From: Candidatus Sungbacteria bacterium RIFCSPLOWO2_01_FULL_54_21
GTDB lineage: Bacteria > Patescibacteriota > Minisyncoccia > Sungbacterales > HO2-52-23
NCBI GenBank assembly: GCA_001820725.1
Contig: MHQR01000026.1
Coordinates: 7,885 to 55,645 of the forward strand
Direction of reading: 5' to 3'
Length of the DNA: 47,761 nucleotides
The translations under genes and the position numbers were made by a program. The notes below the pieces were generated by a model. It ran no database searches. It had not been told where the DNA came from and saw nothing but the letters and a program-made list of their open reading frames with translations. The first letter of the stretch is position 1. Each line of letters starts with the position of its first letter. Positions 5,600 through 47,761 of this stretch are shown here, piece after piece.

Positions 5600-5626
5600 G
5601 CGTAAACGATTAACAATCGTTTACGC
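5600..5626. repeat. perfect hairpin palindrome GCGTAAACGATT-AAC-AATCGTTTACGC
   Basis: 12-bp arms with a 3-nt loop. A near-identical palindrome is at 37523..37551. On the minus strand it is followed by GAGTTTTCC, so it could also terminate galU. Confidence 0.6.
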
Positions 5627-7876: not shown

Positions 7877-8561
7877 CGCGAAGAAAAAGCGAGCGCGGAA
7901 AATTTTCTCCGCGCTCAAGAAAACGTATCCGCATGCGCGGATAGCACTGCGCTATGCGAACCCGTGGGAACTTTTGGTTGCCGTCATCCTCTCCGCGCAA
8001 TGCACGGACAAAAAGGTGAACGAGGTAACGCCCGCACTTTTCAAGAAATATCCAGCGCTTGATGACTATGTGACGGCAAACCCGCGCGAATTTGAAATGC
8101 TGATTCGGCAGACCGGTTTTTATCACGCCAAGGCAAAAGCCATTCTCGCGTCGGCAAAAATCGTAAAGGGAACGTTCGGCGGAAGAGTGCCGAAAACCAT
8201 GGAGAAAATTTTAACACTCCGCGGCGTTGCGCGAAAAAGCGCGAATGTTGTTCTCGGCAATGCGTACGGCGTGGTGGACGGCATCGCTGTGGACACGCAT
8301 GTGCGACGGCTGTCCCAGCGCATGGGATGTACCACGCATCATGATCCGGTAAAAATAGAGAGGGATCTTATGGCGCTTCTCCCAAAAAAAGATTGGTTTG
8401 CATCGACATATCTTTTGATTGATCACGGCCGCGCGATATGCACAGCCAAAGATCCGCGATGTGATCTGTGTCCCTTGAAAGACATCTGCCCGTCCGCATT
8501 CGCCTTCCCACGATTCACACGTCACGTATCACGAGACACGAAGAAAAAATATGGAAAGTAA
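7857..8561 (+). CDS. nth: endonuclease III
   Basis: LLVAVILSAQCTDKKVN, an HhH segment, and the C-x6-C-x2-C-x5-C cluster CTAKDPRCDLCPLKDIC. Confidence 0.9.
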   Translation: MSHEIFDAKKKRARKIFSALKKTYPHARIALRYANPWELLVAVILSAQCTDKKVNEVTPALFKKYPALDDYVTANPREFEMLIRQTGFYHAKAKAILASAKIVKGTFGGRVPKTMEKILTLRGVARKSANVVLGNAYGVVDGIAVDTHVRRLSQRMGCTTHHDPVKIERDLMALLPKKDWFASTYLLIDHGRAICTAKDPRCDLCPLKDICPSAFAFPRFTRHVSRDTKKKYGK

Positions 8562-8716
8562 GTGTCTTCTTGGTCTGCTTATCACGAACAGTGGATCTCA
8601 CCTGATGCGCATGCAGGAGCGATGGCATCCGCTGAAGAAGGAGGAATACTATGGAAAACTATCGAGAGTATCAGTCATGAATCGTGATACGTGACTCGTG
8701 TCTCGCATTTCTAGGG

Positions 8717-20131: not shown

Positions 20132-20173
20132 AGCGCGTATTGTATGCCTGCGCCGTGCCCAGGTCAAACCGTT

Positions 20174-20278
20174 CCGCTCCCGATGTTGCGAGAGGTTCAA
20201 CCGCACGGCACCTGCGGGACACTGCCCCAAGTCCCCGATGTGCCGTGCCAAGCAACTTCACACAATATCGGTAGCGGG
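20174..20278 (+). repeat. R-type palindromic element, copy R1 (intergenic)
   Basis: 5' arm CCGCTCCCGATGTTG pairs with 3' arm CAATATCGGTAGCGG. Inner 9-bp stem GCACGGCAC/GTGCCGTGC. Arms are shared with 36963, 37510 and 44860(rev). Confidence 0.8.
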
Positions 20279-27916: not shown

Positions 27917-28510
27917 TCATCTCACGGAGAAGGATGCGCGATGGATGGGCGAGAAGCCATGTTGTTTCAGCAGGCGCCTATGCAAAACCGTGCCATATCC
28001 TTTGTGCAGATCAAAGCGGTACAGGGGAAATTTCTTGTGCGTACGTACCATGAGCCGGTCGCGCGTAACTTTGGCGATGATGGACGCCGCAGAAACGGCA
28101 GGGATTTTTTCATCCCCTTTTATGATCGCCTTGTAGCGTACAGAAGAGGGCAGTGTTAGTCCGGCATCCACGAGCACAGATTCCAGACTAAGTCTGGAAT
28201 CTCGTTCCAGACTTAGTCTGGAATAAACACGGCGGGCGCCAAGATTTCCTGCCGCAGATATATTTATCCGATCAATCACCATGGGCGACACCCGCGCGAC
28301 CGCCCATTCAATTGCGGGATGATGCGTCAGCACGCGATACCATGCTTCGCGCTGTGCAGGACTCAATTTTTTAGAATCGCGAATGCCGAAAAGCACGCGG
28401 CGCGCATGTCCTGGCTTTATTTTCACGCCTGCGACCACGACGGGTCCTGCCAGCGGCCCGCGCCCCGCCTCATCAATACCGATGATAAAGGTTTCTCTGT
28501 TGCCCTGCAT
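27917..28510 (-). CDS. rnhB: ribonuclease HII (carries an in-frame palindromic insert)
   Basis: Start moved to MQGNRETFIIGIDEAGRGPLAGPVV. IIKGDEKIPAVSAASIIAK. Insert SRLSLERDSRLSLE is encoded by 28181..28223. Confidence 0.9.
   Translation of the reverse strand: MQGNRETFIIGIDEAGRGPLAGPVVVAGVKIKPGHARRVLFGIRDSKKLSPAQREAWYRVLTHHPAIEWAVARVSPMVIDRINISAAGNLGARRVYSRLSLERDSRLSLESVLVDAGLTLPSSVRYKAIIKGDEKIPAVSAASIIAKVTRDRLMVRTHKKFPLYRFDLHKGYGTVLHRRLLKQHGFSPIHRASFSVR
28181..28223. repeat. P19 palindrome doublet inside rnhB
   Basis: TTCCAGACTAAGTCTGGAA + TCTCG + TTCCAGACTTAGTCTGGAA. Each unit is a perfect 19-bp palindrome. Confidence 0.9.
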
Positions 28511-36133: not shown

Positions 36134-37153
36134 ATGCAGAAAATCATTGTCATCGTAGGCCCTACGGCATCGGGCAAATCGGCGCTCGCGGTCTTGCTCG
36201 CAAAAAAATTCAACGGCGAAGTCGTCTCCGCCGATTCGCGTCAGGTGTATCGCGGACTTGAAATCGGATCCGCCGCAATCACTGATAGAGAAATGCGAGG
36301 CGTGCCGCATCACCTTGTCGGCATTGTCTCGCCGCGAGAGGTATGTACCACTGGACACTTTGTCGCGGCGGCTCGGGACGCGATCGCCGATATCGCGCGG
36401 CGAGGCCGCGTCCCCATTGTCGCGGGCGGCACCGCATTCTGGGTCAATGCCCTAGCGCAAGGCATCGTCTTGCCCGAAATAAAGCCAGATACGGCGCTCC
36501 GCCGGCGGCTTGAGAAAAAATCAGCCGCCCAACTCTTTGCCATACTCAAAAAAGCAGACCCCCGCCGCGCAGGGGATATTGAACAACAAAATCCTCGCCG
36601 CCTGATCCGCGCCATCGAAATCGCGCGCTCGCTGGGCCGCGTCCCCCCTTTTGTTAAACACCGAGTGTTTAACACGCTGTGGCTCGGCCTCAATCCGGCT
36701 CCGGTGCTGCTCGCCCGCCGCGTCACGGCGCGCGCAGAGCGCATGATTCGCGACGGCCTTGCCGCAGAGACCCGGGCGCTCGCGCGAAGCATCCCTATAA
36801 AACGCGTCCGCGAATTTGGATTTGAGTATCGCGCGGCGCTTTTGTATAACCGCGGCGAGCTGACGCGCAAACAGTTTGCCGCGCGCCTCGTGGCCGACAC
36901 CCTGCACTATGCAAAACAGCAAAACCGATGGTGGAAACGCAATCCGGCCATTTATTGGATTACCGCTCCCGATGTTGCGCGACGTTTCGGAGCACGGCAC
37001 AAATGGGACAATGTCCACGCCGCGGCAATCTCACTCGTCAAAAAATTCTTGCAAAAAAGTCCCTCACGGACTGCCAAAAACCGGCTGACGTTTCGGGCGG
37101 CGCCGGCCGTTCGTCCGGCACGACCACGACGACTTCCTCGCCCGGGTTCTTGA
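36134..37153 (+). CDS. miaA: tRNA dimethylallyltransferase
   Basis: P-loop GPTASGKSALAV, SADSRQVYRGLEIGSA. The C-terminal region contains repeat R2 in frame and a 33-aa Arg/Pro-rich tail overlapping the convergent gene. Confidence 0.9.
   Translation: MQKIIVIVGPTASGKSALAVLLAKKFNGEVVSADSRQVYRGLEIGSAAITDREMRGVPHHLVGIVSPREVCTTGHFVAAARDAIADIARRGRVPIVAGGTAFWVNALAQGIVLPEIKPDTALRRRLEKKSAAQLFAILKKADPRRAGDIEQQNPRRLIRAIEIARSLGRVPPFVKHRVFNTLWLGLNPAPVLLARRVTARAERMIRDGLAAETRALARSIPIKRVREFGFEYRAALLYNRGELTRKQFAARLVADTLHYAKQQNRWWKRNPAIYWITAPDVARRFGARHKWDNVHAAAISLVKKFLQKSPSRTAKNRLTFRAAPAVRPARPRRLPRPGS
36963..37030 (+). repeat. R-type element, copy R2 (inside the miaA coding region)
   Basis: CCGCTCCCGATGTTGCGCGACGTTTCGGAGCACGGCACAAATGGGACAATGTCC. 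Aligns with R3 over the 5' arm, the TTCGGAGCA segment and GGGACAATGTCC. Translated as APDVARRFGARHKWDNVHAA. The 3' boundary is approximate. Confidence 0.7.
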
Positions 37154-37391: not shown

Positions 37392-37509
37392 ACCCTTTAT
37401 ACTACGCGGTATGTTTAACCACCGCAAAAAACTCAACGCTGTCTGGGTCGGCATCTCGGTTCTCGCCGTCGTCTCCATGGTGTCGTATCTGCTTCTGCCT
37501 CTCGTCTAA

Positions 37510-37640
37510 CCGCTCCCGATGTTGTGTAAACGATTATTAATCGTTTACACATTTCGGAGCAAGGCGCCTTTGGGACAATGTCCCCGCGAGACAGTGTCTC
37601 GCGTGCCATGCTATGCAACATCGGACAATTTCGGCAGCGG
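37510..37640 (+). repeat. R-type element, copy R3 (intergenic, with nested palindromes)
   Basis: 5' arm CCGCTCCCGATGTTG and 3' arm CAACATCGGACAATTTCGGCAGCGG. Contains the 29-nt palindrome TGTGTAAACGATTA-T-TAATCGTTTACACA (37523-37551), GGGACAATGTCCC and CGCGAGACA-G-TGTCTCGCG. Abuts the lepA stop. Confidence 0.8.
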
Positions 37641-39536
37641 TTACCGTAATTTGAAAAATACGTCCGGAGGGATGGTCACCCTGCCGGTCTCTTTCAGCCG
37701 CTTTTTGCCGCGCTGTTGTTTTTTCCACAGCTTCATTTTTCTGGTGCGGTCGCCGCCGTACATATGGCTGGTCACATCTTTTTTTGCCGCAGGGATGGTC
37801 TCGCGCGCAATGATGCGCCCGGCGATGGACGCCTGCAAGGCAACGGCGAACAATTCCTTGGGAAGCAGTTCTTTCAATGCCGCCAGGCGCTGTCGTCCGA
37901 TGTCATACGCCCTGGCACGGGGCACCACTTCCCCCAGCACCGGCTGTTCCTCTCCCGCAATCAGAATATCAAGCCGAACCAAATCACCGGTCCGATATCC
38001 GATGAGGGTGTAGGAAAACGACGCAAATCCTTGCGAAATGCTTTTGAGGCGGTCATAAAAATCAACAATCACTTCCCGGAGGGGCGCTTCGCCCTCTAGG
38101 TGCAGACGATCGCCCGCTCGCCCCGTTAGAGACAAGTCCCAACGTGATGCCGGGACTGCCATATCAGTGACGCGGGTCTCTAACGGGGCGAGCGTTTCGG
38201 CTTTTGTGATGATACCCTCGGCTCCCGTAAGCAACGACGTGATCGCCCCCAGGAAACGCGCGGGCGCTACCATTTCGACACGCGCCCAGGGTTCGGTGAT
38301 GTCTCCGATCTCCTGGGCTGGCGGCAGGCGTACCGCGCTGTATACCGTAATCGGCTCTTTGTGTTTGTCTTGAAATGTCACGCGAAACGCCACCGACGGG
38401 CGCGAGAGCGCCAGCGCTACCCCATATTCGCGCCGGAGGCGTTCGGCCACGATTTCCATGTGCAGGAGCCCTAAAAATCCGGCTCTGAATCCGCGACCCG
38501 CAAACGCATGCGTTTGCGCGCCTGCATCCTCCGGTGTAAAAGTAAACGCCGCGTCTTCCAGGTGCAGTTTGCCGAGGGCGTCTCGCATACTTTCGTATGC
38601 GTCCTGATTCTCCGGGAAGAGCGAGGCAAAGACCACGGGCGCTATTTCACGGTATCCGGGCAGGGGCTCAATATCTCGATATTTAGATATGTCAATATAT
38701 CGCGTTATGGTATCACCCACACGGACTCTCGCTGGCTCTTTGATGCCGGTGGCCACATAGCCGATTTCGCCGTATTGCAGGCCCGTTCCTGGACTGCGTT
38801 CCGGCGTGAACACGCCGATCTCCAGGACTTCAGCGCCGGTTTCCCCTGCCATGAAATGAATTTTGTCGCCTTTTTTCAATACCCCGTCCACGACTCTCAC
38901 ATGCGCGATGACGCCTAGATACCGATCGTACTTGGAGTCAAATACGAGCGCGCGCAGGGGCGCGTCCGCCATTTCGCCATTTCGATATTTCGATATTTTC
39001 TCACTGGGCGGCGGCACTTTCTCCATGACTGCGGACAAGAGGGCCTCCACGCCCGTCCCTTCTTTTGCCGAAATCGCATACACATCCTCGGGGCGGCATC
39101 CCACCAGCGCCGACAATTCTTCCATGGTTTTTTCTTTTTCCGCCGACGGCAGGTCCACTTTATTCACCACAGGAATGACCACCAAACCCTCCTGCTGTGC
39201 CAGATATAGATTGGCGAGCGTCTGGGCCTGCACGCCCTGGGTCGCGTCCACGAGCAGGATGGCCCCCTCTACGGCGGCGAGCGCGCGCGACACTTCGTAT
39301 GAAAAATCAGCATGCCCAGGCGTATCGATAAGATTCAGGATCCGCCCTTGCCACGCCATGCGCACGGGCTGCATTTTTATCGTAATCCCCTTTTCACGCT
39401 CCAGAGGATGTATGTCTAAAAACTGGGCGCGCATTTCCCGCCGTTCCACCGTGCCGGTCAATTCCAAAAAACGATCCGCCAGCGTGGATTTTCCATGATC
39501 AATATGCGCGATGATGACGAAATTGCGGATATCCAT
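37641..39536 (-). CDS. lepA: elongation factor 4
   Basis: Start moved to MDIRNFVIIAHIDHGKSTLADR. DTPGHADF. LepA-specific C-terminal domain with ...KKQQRGKKRLKE. Confidence 0.95.
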   Translation of the reverse strand: MDIRNFVIIAHIDHGKSTLADRFLELTGTVERREMRAQFLDIHPLEREKGITIKMQPVRMAWQGRILNLIDTPGHADFSYEVSRALAAVEGAILLVDATQGVQAQTLANLYLAQQEGLVVIPVVNKVDLPSAEKEKTMEELSALVGCRPEDVYAISAKEGTGVEALLSAVMEKVPPPSEKISKYRNGEMADAPLRALVFDSKYDRYLGVIAHVRVVDGVLKKGDKIHFMAGETGAEVLEIGVFTPERSPGTGLQYGEIGYVATGIKEPARVRVGDTITRYIDISKYRDIEPLPGYREIAPVVFASLFPENQDAYESMRDALGKLHLEDAAFTFTPEDAGAQTHAFAGRGFRAGFLGLLHMEIVAERLRREYGVALALSRPSVAFRVTFQDKHKEPITVYSAVRLPPAQEIGDITEPWARVEMVAPARFLGAITSLLTGAEGIITKAETLAPLETRVTDMAVPASRWDLSLTGRAGDRLHLEGEAPLREVIVDFYDRLKSISQGFASFSYTLIGYRTGDLVRLDILIAGEEQPVLGEVVPRARAYDIGRQRLAALKELLPKELFAVALQASIAGRIIARETIPAAKKDVTSHMYGGDRTRKMKLWKKQQRGKKRLKETGRVTIPPDVFFKLR

Positions 39537-39561: not shown

Positions 39562-41280
39562 TTATTTCTCCGCCTCTCCCCCCCATTCTGCGGGAAGGCG
39601 GCGTAGAGAGAACAGGCGCCGGGTGATGCTTTTTCGCAACGCTCCAACCTCCTCGTTCCCTAGCATAGAGAGCACCGCCCAATATACCCCGAAGCCGGCT
39701 CCTGCCGCCACTGCCCCCTGCAGGAGCACGCGCGCAAAGGTGATGAGCGGCAGGGTCTGGGAAAAACTGGCGCGGACCGCATACGCGGCAATACCTGCGC
39801 CGAGCGCGGCGCAGGCGATTTGCCCGATTGTCTTTGCTCCCGTCGGCGCGGCCCTGATACCAAACCGCCGCCGGGCCGCCCGGATGAGCAGGATCCACAG
39901 CGCCAGGGCGTTGATCACCACGCCCGCGGCAAACGCGAGACCCATCCCCAGCACCGCAGGATGCGCCATGTCCTGGATGCGGAAAAGCGCGGCAATGGCG
40001 ACGCTTTCCGGCGAAGCCCGCCCAAGCGCCCGCGTCAAAGCCCAGGCGATACCGACCGTGCCCACAGACGTTACCGCATTTACGGCAAGCGGTATACGCG
40101 TATTTCCCAAAGCATAAAATCCGCGGATGAGCAGGATATGGAGGGCTCCGGCCGCCATGGCGATGCATAATGAGGCCAGCACCGCCGCCGTAAGCCGCGT
40201 GTCTTCCCAGGAAAATGCGCCAGCGCCGAGACCAACGCGCACGATGTGCGCGCGCAGAACGAGGACGAGAACCGCCGCAGGCATTACCCAGAAAAGAATG
40301 CTGTGTATGCCGGCTGATAATTCTTCCAGAAAGTCCCTCCCCGAATCCAGCGCCGCCGCCCGCGCCATGCGCGGAAACACCGCAACCGCGTAACTTGCGG
40401 CAAAGATGCCGATGGGCACGAAATACAAATCATACGCTGCGGAAAAGACGGCCACGCTTCCTTCAGCGAGCGTCGAGCCGATTGCAATAAGAACCAGCAC
40501 CGTCAGCTGGGAAAGAGAGATGGCGAGCACGCGGGGAAAAGAAAGTACGAGCACCTTCCGTATGCCAACAGCAATTCCAGACTTAGTCTGGAATTTCCAG
40601 ACTAAGTCTGGAATTCTCGTGAGACCAAACCCGAGGCGCGCGGCGAAGATATATTGCACCGACATATGGAGCAGTGCGCCGAGCGCCACGCCCATACCAA
40701 GCCCCCTCACGCCGAAGATAGGCACAAACAGCAGGATGCCGACCACGATGCCCATGTTGTAGAGGATGGGCGCCAGGGCATAGACAAAGAAGAGCCGGAA
40801 TGATTGCAGAACCACGGAGAAGATACCGGACAGACCGAAAAGAATCGGGGATATGAGCATGAGCCGGACCAGAGCGGTCATGAGTGAGCGCTCGCCGGAG
40901 GAAAAGCCGGGCGCTATCAAGGGGACGATGGCCGGTACGGCAAAAAATACCACCGCGGAAAGCGCGAGCGCGGCGAGAAAAAAGAGTGTGGAAAGGGCGG
41001 CAATGAATGCTTTGGCTTTTTTTCTGTCTTCAATCAAGTACTCCTGAAATATCGGCAGGATGGCGGCCGATGCCGCGCCCAGCAAAAACACTGCGGCCAT
41101 GAAGTCGGGTATCTGGAACGCCGCGTAATAGATATCCAACTCCCGCCCCGCGCCGAATTCGGCGAAAAGCAAACGGTTGCGCACGACACCCACCAGCCGG
41201 CTCGCCAGTCCTGCGGTGCCCAAAAGAAGCGCCGCGGCATGGACGTTCGCCACTTCCTGTTTCAGAAACGCAAGTCGCAC
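39562..41280 (-). CDS. murJ: lipid II flippase MurJ (carries an in-frame palindromic insert)
   Basis: LLGTAGLASRLVGVVRNRLLFAEFGAG.ELDIYYAAFQIPDF N-terminus, about 14 TM helices. Insert IPDLVWKFQTKSGI is encoded by 40575..40613. Confidence 0.9.
   Translation of the reverse strand: MRLAFLKQEVANVHAAALLLGTAGLASRLVGVVRNRLLFAEFGAGRELDIYYAAFQIPDFMAAVFLLGAASAAILPIFQEYLIEDRKKAKAFIAALSTLFFLAALALSAVVFFAVPAIVPLIAPGFSSGERSLMTALVRLMLISPILFGLSGIFSVVLQSFRLFFVYALAPILYNMGIVVGILLFVPIFGVRGLGMGVALGALLHMSVQYIFAARLGFGLTRIPDLVWKFQTKSGIAVGIRKVLVLSFPRVLAISLSQLTVLVLIAIGSTLAEGSVAVFSAAYDLYFVPIGIFAASYAVAVFPRMARAAALDSGRDFLEELSAGIHSILFWVMPAAVLVLVLRAHIVRVGLGAGAFSWEDTRLTAAVLASLCIAMAAGALHILLIRGFYALGNTRIPLAVNAVTSVGTVGIAWALTRALGRASPESVAIAALFRIQDMAHPAVLGMGLAFAAGVVINALALWILLIRAARRRFGIRAAPTGAKTIGQIACAALGAGIAAYAVRASFSQTLPLITFARVLLQGAVAAGAGFGVYWAVLSMLGNEEVGALRKSITRRLFSLRRLPAEWGGEAEK
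40575..40613. repeat. P19 palindrome doublet inside murJ
   Basis: TTCCAGACTTAGTCTGGAA + T + TTCCAGACTAAGTCTGGAA. Same two units as in rnhB, in swapped order. Confidence 0.9.
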
Positions 41281-43996: not shown

Positions 43997-44494
43997 TTAT
44001 CCGCTTTCGCCGTCTTTCTTATACCCGGGCATAAACTTCTTCCACGCTTGTTCCAATCGCAACATCTTCCTCCGTACATATATATACTTTTTAATCGCGC
44101 CGTCAAAGAATTCCCACGGGATGCCGCTCTCGCAGATATCGCGGAACTGCTCCAAATACACGATCATCTTGTTACAGTTGAGCATGGCTTTTTCAATCGC
44201 CGCGATACCGGCGATATGATCGCCGAAGCGGAGCGAATGGGCTTCCGCCACCTGATGCGGGATACCCAATGCGCACGGGAGCATATTCTTTATCAGCAAT
44301 TCATCAATAAGATTCGTGTGCTCCGCCTGTTTTTTCTTGATTTTTGCGCGTGCGGCCAAAAAATTATTTACTTCTCGCGCCACGAGCACCGAGCACTCCA
44401 ATGCCTTCTGATACACCTCCAGATCCTGAAAGCTGTGGAGCGGTCGGCGCGGATAATAGGGACGTTGCTCTTGTTTTTGATAATACATAGTCAT
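43997..44494 (-). CDS. four-helix-bundle protein (23S rRNA IVS protein / Avd-like family)
   Basis: SFQDLEVYQKALECSVLVAREV is the family hallmark (F-x-D-L-x-V-[WY]-Q-K-A). 165 aa. Its ATG overlaps the upstream gene's TGA (ATGA). Confidence 0.75.
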   Translation of the reverse strand: MTMYYQKQEQRPYYPRRPLHSFQDLEVYQKALECSVLVAREVNNFLAARAKIKKKQAEHTNLIDELLIKNMLPCALGIPHQVAEAHSLRFGDHIAGIAAIEKAMLNCNKMIVYLEQFRDICESGIPWEFFDGAIKKYIYVRRKMLRLEQAWKKFMPGYKKDGESG

Positions 44495-45708
44495 GTGAGC
44501 GTCGGCCGCAGGGCAATATCGGTAAGCGACTCATTACGCGTGTACACCCCCTCTTTGGTCATAATATTTTTCCGATCCGATCGCGGCTTCCGCTGTTTCC
44601 CCCGACCCTTATGGACGACGTGGAGCGGGAAGAATTCAAAATAGTCCTTTTCATCAAACCACGCGCATTTGAAAGCATACATGCGCAGGCCCGTGAGCCG
44701 CGAGAGCGCCATGGCGTAAAGCGTCAATTGCTCGATCGGCTTTTCTTTTGCCGCATTGGGCTTGTAGTCGAGAATATGTATCTGGCCGTTACGCACCTGC
44801 ACGAGATCAATGTGGCCGGTAATCAATCGGGGAAGTTCCTCTGCCGACAATTGACGTAACCCGCTACCGATATTGTCCGCTTTTACAGCAAGTCCCAATT
44901 GGGACTTGCCTCGACGCCGGGCAACATCGGGAGCGTATAACTCAAACCCCAACTGTCTCTGCATATGCAACAAATCGTCCTTTCTAATGTACACCGGCAC
45001 TTCGACCGCCACGGTTACCGTATCGTTAGCAAGCATGAATTTCTGCACTGCCTCGTGCCGGTCTTTGTTCCTCTCCACTCCCTGCAGGGCGAATGCGGCG
45101 AGCGCATTGGCAAAATTATGTTTTGACCGCACGATCATCTGCTCCTTTGAAAACCGCAGAGGCGATTCGGACATCCGCAGCCCTTCTTGAAAATACTGGT
45201 GCGGCGTCTCACTGGATACGAGCGACAAAAACTCGGCGAGCGGCCCGAAGCTGGCGTGCCTGATGTCTTCGCGGATGATCATCCTGGTTTTCGCCCGATG
45301 CCACATGAAGCGGTAGAGCTGGCGGTGCGCGAGTGTGGCTGTCTCTACCACATGCTCCGGCCGGAACATCTTGAGCGCGAACGGGCGATAGCGGTGATAC
45401 CGGCAGAGTTCCTTGAATTCTTCCACCCAGTTGGCTACCGTCGAAGCCGATATATCAAAATCCGTTTTCTGCTTTATGATCTTGCACGCCTGCTCCAGCG
45501 AAAATCCGAGGTTATAGTAGCTCATGGCATCAATGATCACGCGGTGCGGATAGTGCTTGCCTTTTACTTCCTTGGGCGTGAACGCGCGCAGGCACGAGCG
45601 GCACAGCCACAGCTGTACGCGCTCGCGCTTTTTTTCGCGCCATCCCCGCTTCACCGTATCCGGCGAGGCGCAATAGGCGCATGGTGTTGTGGACAACTTA
45701 CTTGACAT
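44491..45708 (-). CDS. InsA-like Zn-ribbon + HTH fused to a PD-(D/E)xK (RecB/Cas4-like) nuclease domain
   Basis: Start moved to MSSKLSTTPCAYCASPDTVKRGW..LCRSCLRAF (CxxC..CxxC). HTH-like FSLEQACKIIKQKTDFDISASTVANWV. C-terminus has VAVEVPVY .. GHIDLVQV .. IHILDYKP .. QLTLYAMAL (E, D, D-x-K and Q-x-x-x-Y motifs). Repeat R4 lies in frame between the E and D strands. Confidence 0.5.
   Translation of the reverse strand: MSSKLSTTPCAYCASPDTVKRGWREKKRERVQLWLCRSCLRAFTPKEVKGKHYPHRVIIDAMSYYNLGFSLEQACKIIKQKTDFDISASTVANWVEEFKELCRYHRYRPFALKMFRPEHVVETATLAHRQLYRFMWHRAKTRMIIREDIRHASFGPLAEFLSLVSSETPHQYFQEGLRMSESPLRFSKEQMIVRSKHNFANALAAFALQGVERNKDRHEAVQKFMLANDTVTVAVEVPVYIRKDDLLHMQRQLGFELYAPDVARRRGKSQLGLAVKADNIGSGLRQLSAEELPRLITGHIDLVQVRNGQIHILDYKPNAAKEKPIEQLTLYAMALSRLTGLRMYAFKCAWFDEKDYFEFFPLHVVHKGRGKQRKPRSDRKNIMTKEGVYTRNESLTDIALRPTLT
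44860..44935 (-). repeat. R-type element, copy R4 (inside the nuclease gene)
   Basis: On the minus strand: CGCTCCCGATGTTG ... GCAAGTCCCAATTGGGACTTGC (22-nt perfect palindrome) ... CAATATCGGTAGCGGG. Translated as APDVARRRGKSQLGLAVKADNIGSG. Confidence 0.8.
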
Positions 45709-45722
45709 TGTTTTCGGTTCTG

Positions 45723-46073
45723 CTAATGTAACAGTACATTCGGCATTCGCCGCGGCCCCGCCAAAAGCGGGGAATTTTTTATGCTTTGATGCAAACACAC
45801 ATACATGCTTTTGCCTTCTTGCGTAATCTCGACATACCAGGAACCTTCTTTTCTCTGTGATGTGGTGGGCGCAACAAGATAAAATTCGCGGGATAATTTT
45901 TTGAGAATAATTCCCGGCCTTGAAGACAGGTTGCTCTTTCCATTCATCTCAAAACCAACATTTTCCCCGAAACTTATCCACCACAAATCACGCTCCTTAA
46001 CCAAGGGCGGCACATGTTGCGTATCATGCAGTTTCTCTTTTAATTTTATCCACTCCAAAAATCTTTTGATCAT
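45723..46073 (-). CDS. PemK/MazF-family toxin-like protein, C-terminus apparently replaced
   Basis: FLEWIKLKEKLH..ERDLWWISFGENVGFEMNGK..SRPGIILKK..LVAPTTSQRK..WYVEI fits the solitary MazF-like family as I remember it. After ..VCLHQ the expected IR-x-x-D-x-K-R-L segment is missing. Confidence 0.6.
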   Translation of the reverse strand: MIKRFLEWIKLKEKLHDTQHVPPLVKERDLWWISFGENVGFEMNGKSNLSSRPGIILKKLSREFYLVAPTTSQRKEGSWYVEITQEGKSMYVCLHQSIKNSPLLAGPRRMPNVLLH

Positions 46074-46151: not shown

Positions 46152-47761
46152 TCACGGCGTTTCTGCGGTCGTCGTGGAAGTTTCTCCTCCCGCGGGAGGC
46201 GGGGCATCCAGCGTTTCCGCGATGGTCGTCGCGACTTCCTCGACCGGCAGCACTGATGTCGCACCTTCAGCAGGAGACGAAACCTCGGCGATCGTCTCTT
46301 CTGAAGTTTCCAAGGAAGTCGGACTTCCTGCGGGAAGTCCGACTTCCTGCGCCGTCCCGCACGCTCCACTCTGCGGCACCACGGCCCCGCTCACGATCTT
46401 CACGCAATACGGCTCTTTCGTCACTTCGTCATACAGCGTGATGCCCGACGGCGCCGCGGCTGATCCCACTGTCACTTTCTGCGCAATGAGTTCATCCGTA
46501 ATCACCCGCACCGCCATGAGCGTCCCATCTTCATCCATACTCCACTTGCCCAGATAGCCCGTGATTTTTTTTACATCCAAGATTGAATTGCCCTGCATAT
46601 TGATGTCGCCCATAAACGACACATTCACGCGGCCGGACTGCTGATCCACGCTCCATCCATTGATCCCAAAGCCCAAGGTCTCTCTTCCATCGGAAGTGAG
46701 CCCTTGCGCGTTTATAGCCGCATCCAGCTTCGCGGCTCCCCTCTGCACAAAAGCAAGTATTTTAGCCGTTCCCGCGCCCTGATACGGCTCCAGCGCGATG
46801 GCCACGGTCGCGTCTCCGTCTTTTGCTTTCATGCCTACGCCCGCTACTGACGAGATGGTGATCCGATCTCCCGGCAGGATGGGCCCGTTTTCATTATTTA
46901 CTTTGAGCGGAACTCTCCCTGCCAGCGCCACGGGCTTGAATTGAGAGCCGAGAGTGAAGCCCGTGGTGTCTCCGAGGACAATGCCCGGCTTGGTGGAGAT
47001 AATGCCGATGGCGCGATCTCTGCCCTCCTGCGTTGCCTTTTCCACGGAACCGGTAAGGGATTCAATCACTTCAACCACCGAATCCGGCTTGTATTTTTCA
47101 TTCAACTTCTGCTCGTCCGTGTCGCGCTTGCCCTGCTCGTGGGCGGAAAGAGAGAGCGCGACCATTACAATGTCTCCCTCCTCAATAGAAAGATCTGCTA
47201 ACGGATAATTCTCCGCAAGATCGGATGCCCCAATGTTTTCACTATCCGCGTAGGTAGCACCCGCAGTGAGCGTTGCCTGACATTTGGCGGTGCCGTTGTT
47301 GTCCACGCACAGTGCTCCATTGCGGCCGATGATGTCGCGCTGGGTAGATCCGTTCCAAACAGTGAGGGCGCCTTCGGACAAAATCCCTGATGCTCCGGCG
47401 ACAGATAAAATTGTGCCCGGACTCGTCGTCCCGATGCCGACGTTGCCGCTACTGTCTATAATAATCCCATCCGAACCACCGAGTGTTTTGGTAAGACTGA
47501 GTTTTCCCGCTATATCTCCTACCGCGATTTGATAATCAGCGGTTCCATAATGATTCAATGTTATCCTGGCTTTATCGCCCGTCGCTCCCCCTCTCAAATA
47601 GAGAGATGCATCTCCAGCCGAGCCGTTCACCCCAACTAAAATTTGGCCTGTATTTAATGTGAGTTTCTGTGTTGGCCCCGTCGTCCCGATGCCGACGTTG
47701 CCGCTTGATTGACTATTCAACACAAGGGAACTTGCATCAAGACGCAACTGCTTATACGTCG
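46152..47761 (-). CDS. fibre-like surface protein, C-terminal part (5' end runs off the window end)
   Basis: The frame stays open upstream of the tracked TTG at 47747. Repeated GNVGIGTT[GS]P motifs, GASDLAENYPLAD..GDIVMV.., and a Thr/Glu/Pro-rich C-terminal tail. Confidence 0.7.
   Translation of the reverse strand, partial: TYKQLRLDASSLVLNSQSSGNVGIGTTGPTQKLTLNTGQILVGVNGSAGDASLYLRGGATGDKARITLNHYGTADYQIAVGDIAGKLSLTKTLGGSDGIIIDSSGNVGIGTTSPGTILSVAGASGILSEGALTVWNGSTQRDIIGRNGALCVDNNGTAKCQATLTAGATYADSENIGASDLAENYPLADLSIEEGDIVMVALSLSAHEQGKRDTDEQKLNEKYKPDSVVEVIESLTGSVEKATQEGRDRAIGIISTKPGIVLGDTTGFTLGSQFKPVALAGRVPLKVNNENGPILPGDRITISSVAGVGMKAKDGDATVAIALEPYQGAGTAKILAFVQRGAAKLDAAINAQGLTSDGRETLGFGINGWSVDQQSGRVNVSFMGDINMQGNSILDVKKITGYLGKWSMDEDGTLMAVRVITDELIAQKVTVGSAAAPSGITLYDEVTKEPYCVKIVSGAVVPQSGACGTAQEVGLPAGSPTSLETSEETIAEVSSPAEGATSVLPVEEVATTIAETLDAPPPAGGETSTTTAETP

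Follow-up and report, generated by a model that had tools for sequence, protein, structure and literature searches.

The stretch of DNA analysed here (47,761 nucleotides (nt) of contig MHQR01000026.1 from an ultra-small groundwater bacterium, Candidatus Sungbacteria bacterium RIFCSPLOWO2_01_FULL_54_21, and referred to as the window) contains a gene for a PD-(D/E)xK nuclease that carries, in frame, a short palindromic repeat designated R4 (Table 1). Comparison of sequences identifies R4 as one copy of a hairpin repeat family spread across the Patescibacteria, the bacteria of the candidate phyla radiation (CPR). The explanation favoured here is that R4 is an in-frame inserted copy of this family and that the repeats are mobilised in trans by an arm-recognising protein, for which the nuclease is the best candidate; as a whole it is given a probability of roughly 0.75. 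Taken separately, its second half, that such a protein moves or copies the repeats in trans and that this nuclease is the best candidate for it, is a tentative proposal.

R4 and its insertion site in the nuclease gene

On the minus strand, which is the coding strand of the nuclease gene, R4 reads ACGCTCCCGATGTTG-CCCGGCGTCGAG-GCAAGTCCCAATTGGGACTTGC-TGTAAAAGCGGA-CAATATCGGTAGCGGG. The arms CCGCTCCCGATGTTG and CAATATCGGTAGCGG are the terminal inverted repeats of this type of element (R-type). The left arm, CGCTCCCGATGTTG, has four exact sites in the window, at 20175 in R1, 36964 in R2, 37511 in R3 and 44922 (minus strand) in R4, and when up to three mismatches were allowed 25 sites were found where 6.7 were expected. 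Exact copies of the right arm are present in R1 and R4, and in all 12 sites were counted for it against an expectation of 1.6. Altogether the window contains four R copies of 77-133 nt with exact shared arms. Both arms of R1 are identical to those of R4 and the interiors of the two are unrelated; the 22-nt inner palindrome of R4 occurs only once in the window (chance expectation 0). As single-stranded DNA R4 is predicted to form one long hairpin, with z-scores of -4.65 for the coding and -6.31 for the opposite strand. R1 and R3 fold like R4, and the z-scores of the window copies range from -3.9 to -9.2. No known RNA family of Rfam matched anywhere in the window.

R4 contains no stop codon and lies in frame in the open reading frame (ORF) of the nuclease, where nt 44860-44934 encode amino acids (aa) 259-283, APDVARRRGKSQLGLAVKADNIGSG. 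These residues fall between VAVEVPVY, which contains E236, and GHIDLV, which contains D301. The original prediction, made from the letters of the window, had placed an R-type element in frame in a PD-(D/E)xK nuclease gene, and this was borne out, the arms being identical to those of the other copies in the window. It had also stated that about 25 aa were added without a stop. The element does encode 25 stop-free residues, but the net gain is only about 18-19 aa because the native 6-aa loop, KKxGKG, is gone.

The insertion site was compared in homologs of the nuclease (120 listed of at least 2757; 27 sequences in the detailed alignment). The nearest homologs without the exact sequence, which show 75-84% identity, have 'Y-KKxGKG-I' opposite the 'Y-[25 aa]-L' of the window protein. 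This empty form was found in P0003, P0005, P0006, P0008, P0009, P0011-P0016 and P0018. The DNA of the empty site is ...TAT AAA AAG AAT GGA AAA GGC ATA..., and that of the filled site in the window is ...TAC/GCTCCCGATG...GGTAGCGGG/TTA... (slashes mark the ends of the insert). The insertion lies directly after the Y258 codon, and 15-18 nt of the native loop are replaced. Homologs P0002, P0004, P0007, P0010 and P0017 have inserts at the same junction, which start with APDVARRRGKS, end with N(I/V)G(S/T)G and have longer, different middles. At least eight extra residues are present at this site in 53 of the 120 listed homologs, a frequent pattern among these 120 being Y followed by RPAA(D/E)V...GN(V/I)G(S/T)G. 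The expectation that homologs would lack the 25-aa segment was confirmed for the closest ones, and others hold inserts of the same family with unrelated interiors. Because the nearest homologs are without the segment and variable inserts occur elsewhere, it is an inserted repeat and not conserved protein sequence.

In a neighbour-joining tree calculated without the insert columns, filled and empty forms were interleaved in several clades, a pattern consistent either with recurrent insertion or with repeated losses or gene conversion. The same peptide signature was found at other hot spots in nuclease homologs, namely ahead of the Zn ribbon, past aa 84-86 of the helix-turn-helix (HTH) region and past aa 174-181. 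The exact window sequence was present in several groundwater and soil DNA metagenomes; none of the datasets with this sequence was an RNA run.

Residues E236, D301, D314-x-K316 and Q327-x3-Y331 are invariant in the alignment of the 27 homologs, and by this alignment all catalytic residues of the insert-bearing nuclease are intact. In the AlphaFold2 model of the protein (mean predicted local distance difference test score (pLDDT) 72, predicted template modelling score (pTM) 0.66), aa 266-281, between strands 257-260 and 284-286, have pLDDT values below 50; a search of the PDB with the protein sequence returned no sequence-related solved structure, only Zn-ribbon noise. The insert, situated between nuclease motifs I (E236) and II (D301), probably forms a disordered loop. 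This qualifies the earlier statement that the element was inserted in the catalytic core: it does lie between the motif strands, but the site itself is a poorly modelled loop.

Assignment of the protein to the PD-(D/E)xK nucleases is supported by these invariant motif residues and by a match of aa 262-341 to Pfam family PF12705 (PDDEXK_1), with 28.3 bits at a cut-off of 22. When the AlphaFold2 model was used as query, the best Foldseek matches were the nuclease domains of RecB and AddA, Cas4 and MGME1, with weak E-values from 3e-3. NCBIfam matches of the nuclease domain to RecB, AddA and Cas4 were weak, and PADLOC and PHROGs gave weak Cas4-like and exonuclease matches and nothing more. NCBIfam detected no DDE catalytic region in the nuclease; only its N-terminal Zn ribbon and HTH resemble transposases of the insertion sequences (IS) IS1, IS1595 and IS6. 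The family has at least 2757 homologs, and every match with a named source came from Patescibacteria. Protein length varied from 293 to 673 aa among the 120 homologs listed.

A solo arm-like half site at the 3' end of the nuclease gene, which had been noticed together with R4, is real. It shares its reading frame with the arm (SLTDIA versus APDVA) and is common to homologs P0003, P0004 and P0009. Possibly the sequence at 44455-44467, which spans the start of the next gene at a stop/start overlap, is its decayed partner arm. At other loci an intact paired element is found 140-250 nt beyond the end of the nuclease gene.

The aa 258-270 loop is occupied in P0036, P0090 and other homologs by unrelated repeat-like inserts, e.g. 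'...SVIARRNEVTTKQSREEIAALSTVTRND...', and because of these it is considered a site that takes up in-frame repeats in general. In-frame inserts of another type, 70-95 aa long and containing '(G)GIEPP' or 'GVEP', were seen in P0064, P0072, P0089, P0109, P0110, P0111, P0113 and P0119; judged by the peptide, this motif would be the translation of an antisense tRNA T-arm. At three loci ARAGORN also identified tRNA-like genes in antisense orientation, 40-450 nt ahead of the nuclease gene (L015 800-875, L038 9624-9696 and L055 1701-1773, all on the minus strand). Homolog P0056 contains an intein domain (PF14890) elsewhere in the protein, and its N terminus reads 'GNVGIGTTSPAQSLHVVGQC...', as if a fibre motif upstream were read through.

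Of the other copies in the window, R2 supplies the tail of MiaA, ...APDVARRFGARHKWDNV... ('APDVARRFG...', with the arm in the same frame as in R4). This tail makes up the last 60-odd residues of the 339-aa MiaA ORF, in which the IPPT domain extends as far as aa 269. R2 has no clear right arm; it is missing or decayed. R3 contains a nested palindrome, GTAAACGATTATTAATCGTTTAC, and its folds have z-scores of -8.3 and -9.2. A 23-nt palindrome, GTAAACGATTA(TT/AC)AATCGTTTAC, is nested in R3 (37526-37548) and also occurs solo at 5602-5624, so the interiors of the repeats can hold other palindromic modules. A separate palindromic family, ATTCCAGACT(A/T)AGTCTGGAAT, is present as tandem pairs at 28180-28227 and 40574-40617 and probably corresponds to the elements called P19 in the original prediction.

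Table 1. Positions of the R-type elements, the nuclease gene and neighbouring features in the window
Feature	Position	Strand	Description
R4 hairpin repeat	44860-44936	-	Imperfect 77-nt palindrome, in frame inside the nuclease gene
R4 left arm	44922-44936	-	
R4 inner palindrome	44888-44909	-	Perfect, 22 nt
R4 right arm	44860-44875	-	
Solo arm-like half site	44514-44528	-	Encodes the C-terminal ...SLTDIALRP tail of the nuclease
R1	20173-20278	+	Intergenic, between divergent genes (sufC-like, membrane protein)
R2	36962-37020	+	Left arm plus interior; in frame, in the 3'-terminal part of miaA (36134-37153)
R3	37509-37641	+	Intergenic, exactly fills the gap between convergent genes
Nuclease gene (405 aa)	44491-45708	-	Zn ribbon, HTH and RecB/Cas4-like PD-(D/E)xK nuclease
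Zn ribbon, IS1/IS1595-like	CAYC 45670-45681; CRSC 45592-45603	-	aa 10-44, weak NCBIfam match
HTH, IS6/IS1-like			aa 48-103 of the nuclease, weak NCBIfam match
Nuclease motifs	E236 in 44989-45012; GHID 44800-44817; DYK 44761-44775; QxxxY 44716-44730	-	
Tail-fibre-like gene	46152-47747	-	Upstream of the nuclease gene; PHROG tail-fibre match
MazF/PemK-like gene	45723-46073	-	Between the fibre gene and the nuclease gene
Downstream gene (165 aa)	43997-44494	-	Overlaps the nuclease stop codon (ATGA); conserved downstream in related loci

The repeat family and its neighbourhood

To describe the family outside the window, 80 loci around nuclease homologs were taken from GTDB species genomes of Microgenomates and Parcubacteria lineages. 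A scan for arm pairs covered 82 loci (0.94 Mb), with the reversed sequences as control. It found 59 distinct paired elements and none in the control. (A strict regular expression for both ends of the insert peptide matched only three of 82 nuclease ORFs, and scans for the DNA arms were used instead.) The unit consists of two inverted arms of about 15-21 nt around a variable interior, which often contains a GTCCC-N4-GGGAC mini-hairpin. Longer arms are found in other lineages, where they read cgtccc(nn)tgCCGATRTTG ... CAAYATCGGca(nn)gggacg. Since the arms are near reverse complements, either orientation gives similar peptide ends, (R)P-A-D/E-V...G-N-I/V-G-S/T-G, as can be read from the sequence directly. 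By Pfam, the hosts of in-frame copies in large ORFs of metagenome contigs (from the element-first scan described below) are SecA (at two different sites), GyrB, RecG, RelA/SpoT, TopA and FtsK, besides MiaA in the window. In these housekeeping genes the copies sit between Pfam domains or lengthen one domain. Full-text literature searches returned no description of such repeats in CPR bacteria. Another large in-frame insert was noticed in the LepA (EF4) gene of a close relative (L003, 8389-10815), in which a PDDEXK_3 domain (PF13366) lies between two GTP_EFTU matches.

The paired elements are concentrated at the nuclease gene. The gene itself held nine distinct elements (93.5 kb scanned, 0.096 per kb) and its flanks of up to 300 nt held 15 (48 kb, 0.31 per kb). 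Further upstream there were 25 (238 kb, 0.105 per kb) and further downstream ten (561 kb, 0.018 per kb). Repeat density in and right beside the gene is therefore 5-17 times that found further downstream, and at distances of more than 2.5 kb downstream only three elements were found in 411 kb, two of them being R1 and R3 of the window. An element lies in the nuclease gene or within 300 nt of it at 19 of the 82 loci. The positions are recurrent: 110-240 nt before the Zn ribbon, in the HTH loop, in the aa 258 loop and downstream of the gene, where the elements terminate 140-250 nt beyond it. At L013, L066 and L077 complete elements stand on both sides of the gene.

The reciprocal approach started from the element. 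A metagenome pattern that required the internal GTCCC was too narrow. The element-first scan of metagenomes returned 120 loci, of which about 21 were true elements by their extended arms; about 100 were chance matches on unrelated, often GC-rich contigs. For six of the roughly 21 true elements a nuclease homolog was found on the same contig piece. Of these six, one is in the gene itself, in the loop that holds R4 in the window; three are separated from the gene by 17, 33 and 324 nt and two by 1.9 and 2.8 kb, which places four of the six within 350 nt.

Upstream of the nuclease gene the window contains a tail-fibre-like gene with two exact copies of the 21-nt sequence GGCAACGTCGGCATCGGGACG (47427-47447 and 47682-47702), which encode GNVGIGT. 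In other lineages the right arm of the repeats matches fibre DNA encoding GNVGIGT, exactly in some copies; in the window, the arms and the fibre motif disagree at 4-5 of the 21 positions. Where at least 3 kb of upstream sequence was available, a co-oriented fibre gene with at least three motifs was present at 21 of 28 loci. Usually the nuclease gene follows immediately after a giant fibre-like gene in the same orientation, which may encode up to about 3200 aa and contain 20 or more motifs. Assemblies often break in the fibre gene, so that the nuclease gene is commonly 0.3-3 kb from a contig end, and the window ends there as well.

The codons of the motif are nearly fixed. Among 232 motifs in 32 fibre ORFs from 29 loci, GGC AAC GTC GGC ATC GGG ACG was used at 85-92% per codon, whereas the same codons make up 17-40% of their synonymous sets in the same ORFs. 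Conservation spans about 23 nt and no further. The exact 21-mer was also found in more than 120 IMG/VR contigs with GC contents of 0.29-0.64, against about 0.03 expected (a rough estimate from the approximate size of the collection). These motif-bearing viral contigs contained no nuclease homolog, and no paired elements in 0.99 Mb. Motif fixation is therefore independent of the nuclease. The fixed GNVGIGT codons point to selection on DNA or RNA, not on protein alone. In this sample paired hairpins were found only where the nuclease occurs, a contrast confounded by taxonomy. The arm motif was also considered as a DNA-uptake sequence; this was set aside since the motif is concentrated in fibre genes and sparse elsewhere.

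The 165-aa protein encoded downstream of the nuclease starts with F(Q/E)DLxVYQKA, like four-helix-bundle proteins (23S rRNA IVP/Avd-type), and has no significant Pfam match; going by this resemblance it may be a four-helix bundle. Its homolog at L092 hosts an in-frame R element (8544-8613). The MazF/PemK-like gene occupies the same place in the closest related locus (L001, L002) and is absent from L003. One Moraniibacteriota metagenome-assembled genome contains three nuclease copies (L022, L030 and L031) that are 86-88% identical at the DNA level. Their homology extends from about 65 nt before the gene to its end, and each copy stands behind a different fibre gene. They are either mobile-unit-like paralogs or come from mixed strains in one bin.

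Candidate mechanism and rival explanations

The comparison of sequences shows that a repeat of the family was inserted at the DNA level after the Y258 codon and displaced the short Lys/Gly-rich loop. Because both arms are free of stop codons and the element is nearly symmetrical, the repeat is read through as a 25-aa segment. R4 appears to be tolerated, with no role in the enzyme. According to the proposed mechanism of mobilisation, the Zn ribbon and HTH of the nuclease would bind the arm and the RecB-like domain would cut. The nuclease is proposed as the candidate because the repeats pile up in and beside its gene and because their arms resemble the motif of the fibre gene upstream. The nuclease might be a new sequence-specific DNA enzyme with a site of approximately GGCAAYRTCGGNAYYGGGACG, which would act on the solo sites of the fibre gene for homing or reshuffling and would copy or move the paired hairpins; this extended proposal is speculative and its odds are clearly below even.

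The original prediction had raised a link between the nuclease and the repeats like that of the REP-associated tyrosine transposases (RAYT) with repetitive extragenic palindromic (REP) sequences, and had flagged it as speculation. The link has gained circumstantial support from the enrichment of paired elements at the nuclease gene and from the six cases among about 21 true elements in the element-first sample; mobilisation by the nuclease, for its part, is no better than possible. Several observations weigh against it. In the element-first sample, about 70% of the elements have no nuclease gene nearby. The NCBIfam matches of the N-terminal Zn ribbon and HTH scored 20-24 bits, below their cut-offs of 28-125. 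Comparison of filled and empty sites showed no target-site duplication, the native loop being replaced and not split. In the metagenomes that hold the exact locus no empty-site variant of it was found, and the insertion is undatable. Finally, the enrichment could arise from the fibre gene as source of the arms, or from a nuclease that is tolerant of inserts. No direct repeats common to the flanks of R1-R4 were detected either. Replacement of the native loop together with the lack of a target duplication agrees better with insertion by repair or recombination than with classic cut-and-paste.

A different enzyme might move the repeats, for example RAYT-like HUH transposases of the IS200 type, the nuclease gene being merely a tolerant host with permissive loops. 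Hairpin repeats are classic substrates of HUH transposases (PMC3733652), and the unrelated palindromic and tRNA-like inserts in the same loops of the nuclease argue for tolerance. RAYT/IS200-like HUH ORFs (MPNHFH) were indeed found 2-8 kb from the nuclease gene at eight of 84 gene-first loci (L066 11735-12412 on the minus strand, L008, L025, L048, L051, L061, L063 and L077), and one at L106 lies at such a distance from a repeat element. However, the gene-first ORFs are not flanked by arms, the 47.7-kb window has no RAYT-like HUH ORF, and in the element-first sample such an ORF was present on one of 21 contigs as against six of 21 for the nuclease. Tolerance of inserts also leaves unexplained the excess of repeats in the non-coding 300-nt flanks. 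This explanation is regarded as unlikely.

Alternatively, the paired elements may not be transposed at all and could have formed by local recombination, fold-back repair or template switching at the 21-nt fibre motif, followed by spread through gene conversion. The arms resemble the motif, with an exact match in some lineages, the elements cluster near the fibre-nuclease locus, the native loop was replaced without target duplication, and filled and empty alleles interleave on the tree. These features speak for such an origin. A local process does not readily explain the copies with identical arms that lie 7-25 kb away in the window (R1-R3), nor those in unlinked genes such as secA, gyrB and recG. 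Furthermore, paired elements are absent from viral contigs that have the solo motif in abundance, and the window arms are not exact matches of the fibre motif, with 4-5 differences in 21 positions. An origin of this kind is rather unlikely.

It is improbable that the hairpin is retained for a function, whether as a regulatory RNA or DNA structure (autoregulation of the nuclease via its own binding site, a pause or terminator, mRNA stabilisation) or as a useful peptide. Such a role would agree with the recurrence of hairpins at a few places (two or three loops, the region past the stop codon and that 110-240 nt ahead of the Zn ribbon) and with the location of R3, which occupies the gap between convergent genes, a place in which one expects a terminator. 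On the other hand, the closest homologs are without the hairpin, the interiors of different copies are unrelated, the encoded peptide is predicted to be disordered and Rfam gave no match.

That the segment is ordinary conserved nuclease sequence or an intein can be practically dismissed: it is in frame and stop-free, and one distant homolog (P0056) has an intein domain elsewhere, but conservation is refuted by the empty nearest homologs and by the other inserts or short loops that take its place across the 120 homologs, and a Hint domain, with about 130 aa or more, is much larger than the 25-aa insert, for which Pfam gave no intein match.

Comparison with known systems and significance

The repeats most similar in behaviour are the Rickettsia palindromic elements (RPE), reportedly described by Ogata et al. 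in Genome Research in 2002. To our knowledge, it has never been settled how the in-frame palindromic repeats of Rickettsia and a few other bacteria move. Like the RPE and intragenic REP sequences, the R family consists of short hairpin repeats that occur between genes and in frame within genes, often those for replication, repair or secretion, and that keep the frame and add 20-30 residues in tolerated places. Unlike them, with their fixed consensus or 8-9-bp stem-loop, the R family has two conserved arms around a variable interior of 30-100 nt; it is found in Patescibacteria, its arms resemble a fibre coding motif and it is strongly linked, physically, to one nuclease gene. The resemblance to the Rickettsia RPE is functional, and shared descent is not claimed. 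For the RPE and the CGTC-type repeats no dedicated transposase is known (PMC3733652), and Di Nocera et al. (2013, PMC3733652) note that genes for replication and repair harbour many of the intragenic REP inserts. A GTAG or CGTC tetranucleotide is conserved at the end of REP repeats (PMC3733652). In many arms of other lineages the first letters are CGTC(CC), and in the arms of the window they are CCGCTCCC; membership in the CGTC-REP family is not supported, the R arms not being small 8-9-bp stem-loops.

The REPIN-RAYT system resembles the R family in that an inverted pair folds into a hairpin and the repeats flank a gene that is inherited vertically and mostly present in one copy. RAYTs, however, are HUH Y1 transposases, whereas the gene flanked by R elements encodes a Zn-ribbon/HTH/RecB-like PD-(D/E)xK nuclease; moreover, R copy numbers look low in most lineages and in-frame copies in genes are common. 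Miniature inverted-repeat transposable elements (MITE) with a cognate IS such as IS1 or IS1595 likewise have conserved inverted ends and variable interiors, and the N-terminal Zn ribbon and HTH of the candidate enzyme are IS-like by weak matches. In contrast to these, the R family has no target-site duplication and the nuclease no DDE domain, and unlike an IS the nuclease gene stands in conserved synteny behind the fibre gene and is apparently not scattered through genomes. Free-standing homing endonuclease genes such as seg and mob of phage T4 offer a parallel for a nuclease gene beside a gene with a long conserved DNA motif, and also for the three similar nuclease copies behind different fibre genes in the Moraniibacteriota genome. 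They belong to a different enzyme family, though, homing does not predict dispersed hairpin repeats, and cleavage of the motif is hypothetical here.

What is new is the combination of RPE/REPIN-like repeats in a new phylum, arms that resemble a fibre motif and tight linkage to the gene of a non-HUH, non-DDE nuclease. Patescibacteria are a huge and barely studied group with tiny genomes, and in them the repeats reshape essential proteins such as SecA, GyrB, RecG, TopA and RelA. In-frame inserts of this kind inflate and distort CPR gene calls and protein alignments. The fixation of synonymous sites in the 21-nt motif, in CPR and viral fibre-like genes alike, points to selection at the DNA level and needs an explanation. 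Unlike in Rickettsia, the repeats are tied to one conserved gene whose product combines a DNA-binding head with a RecB-like nuclease and thus provides a concrete, testable enzyme candidate. If the proposal is true, RPE-type in-frame palindromic repeats would have in this nuclease their first candidate for a mobilising enzyme, and the RAYTs a counterpart that is neither HUH nor DDE.

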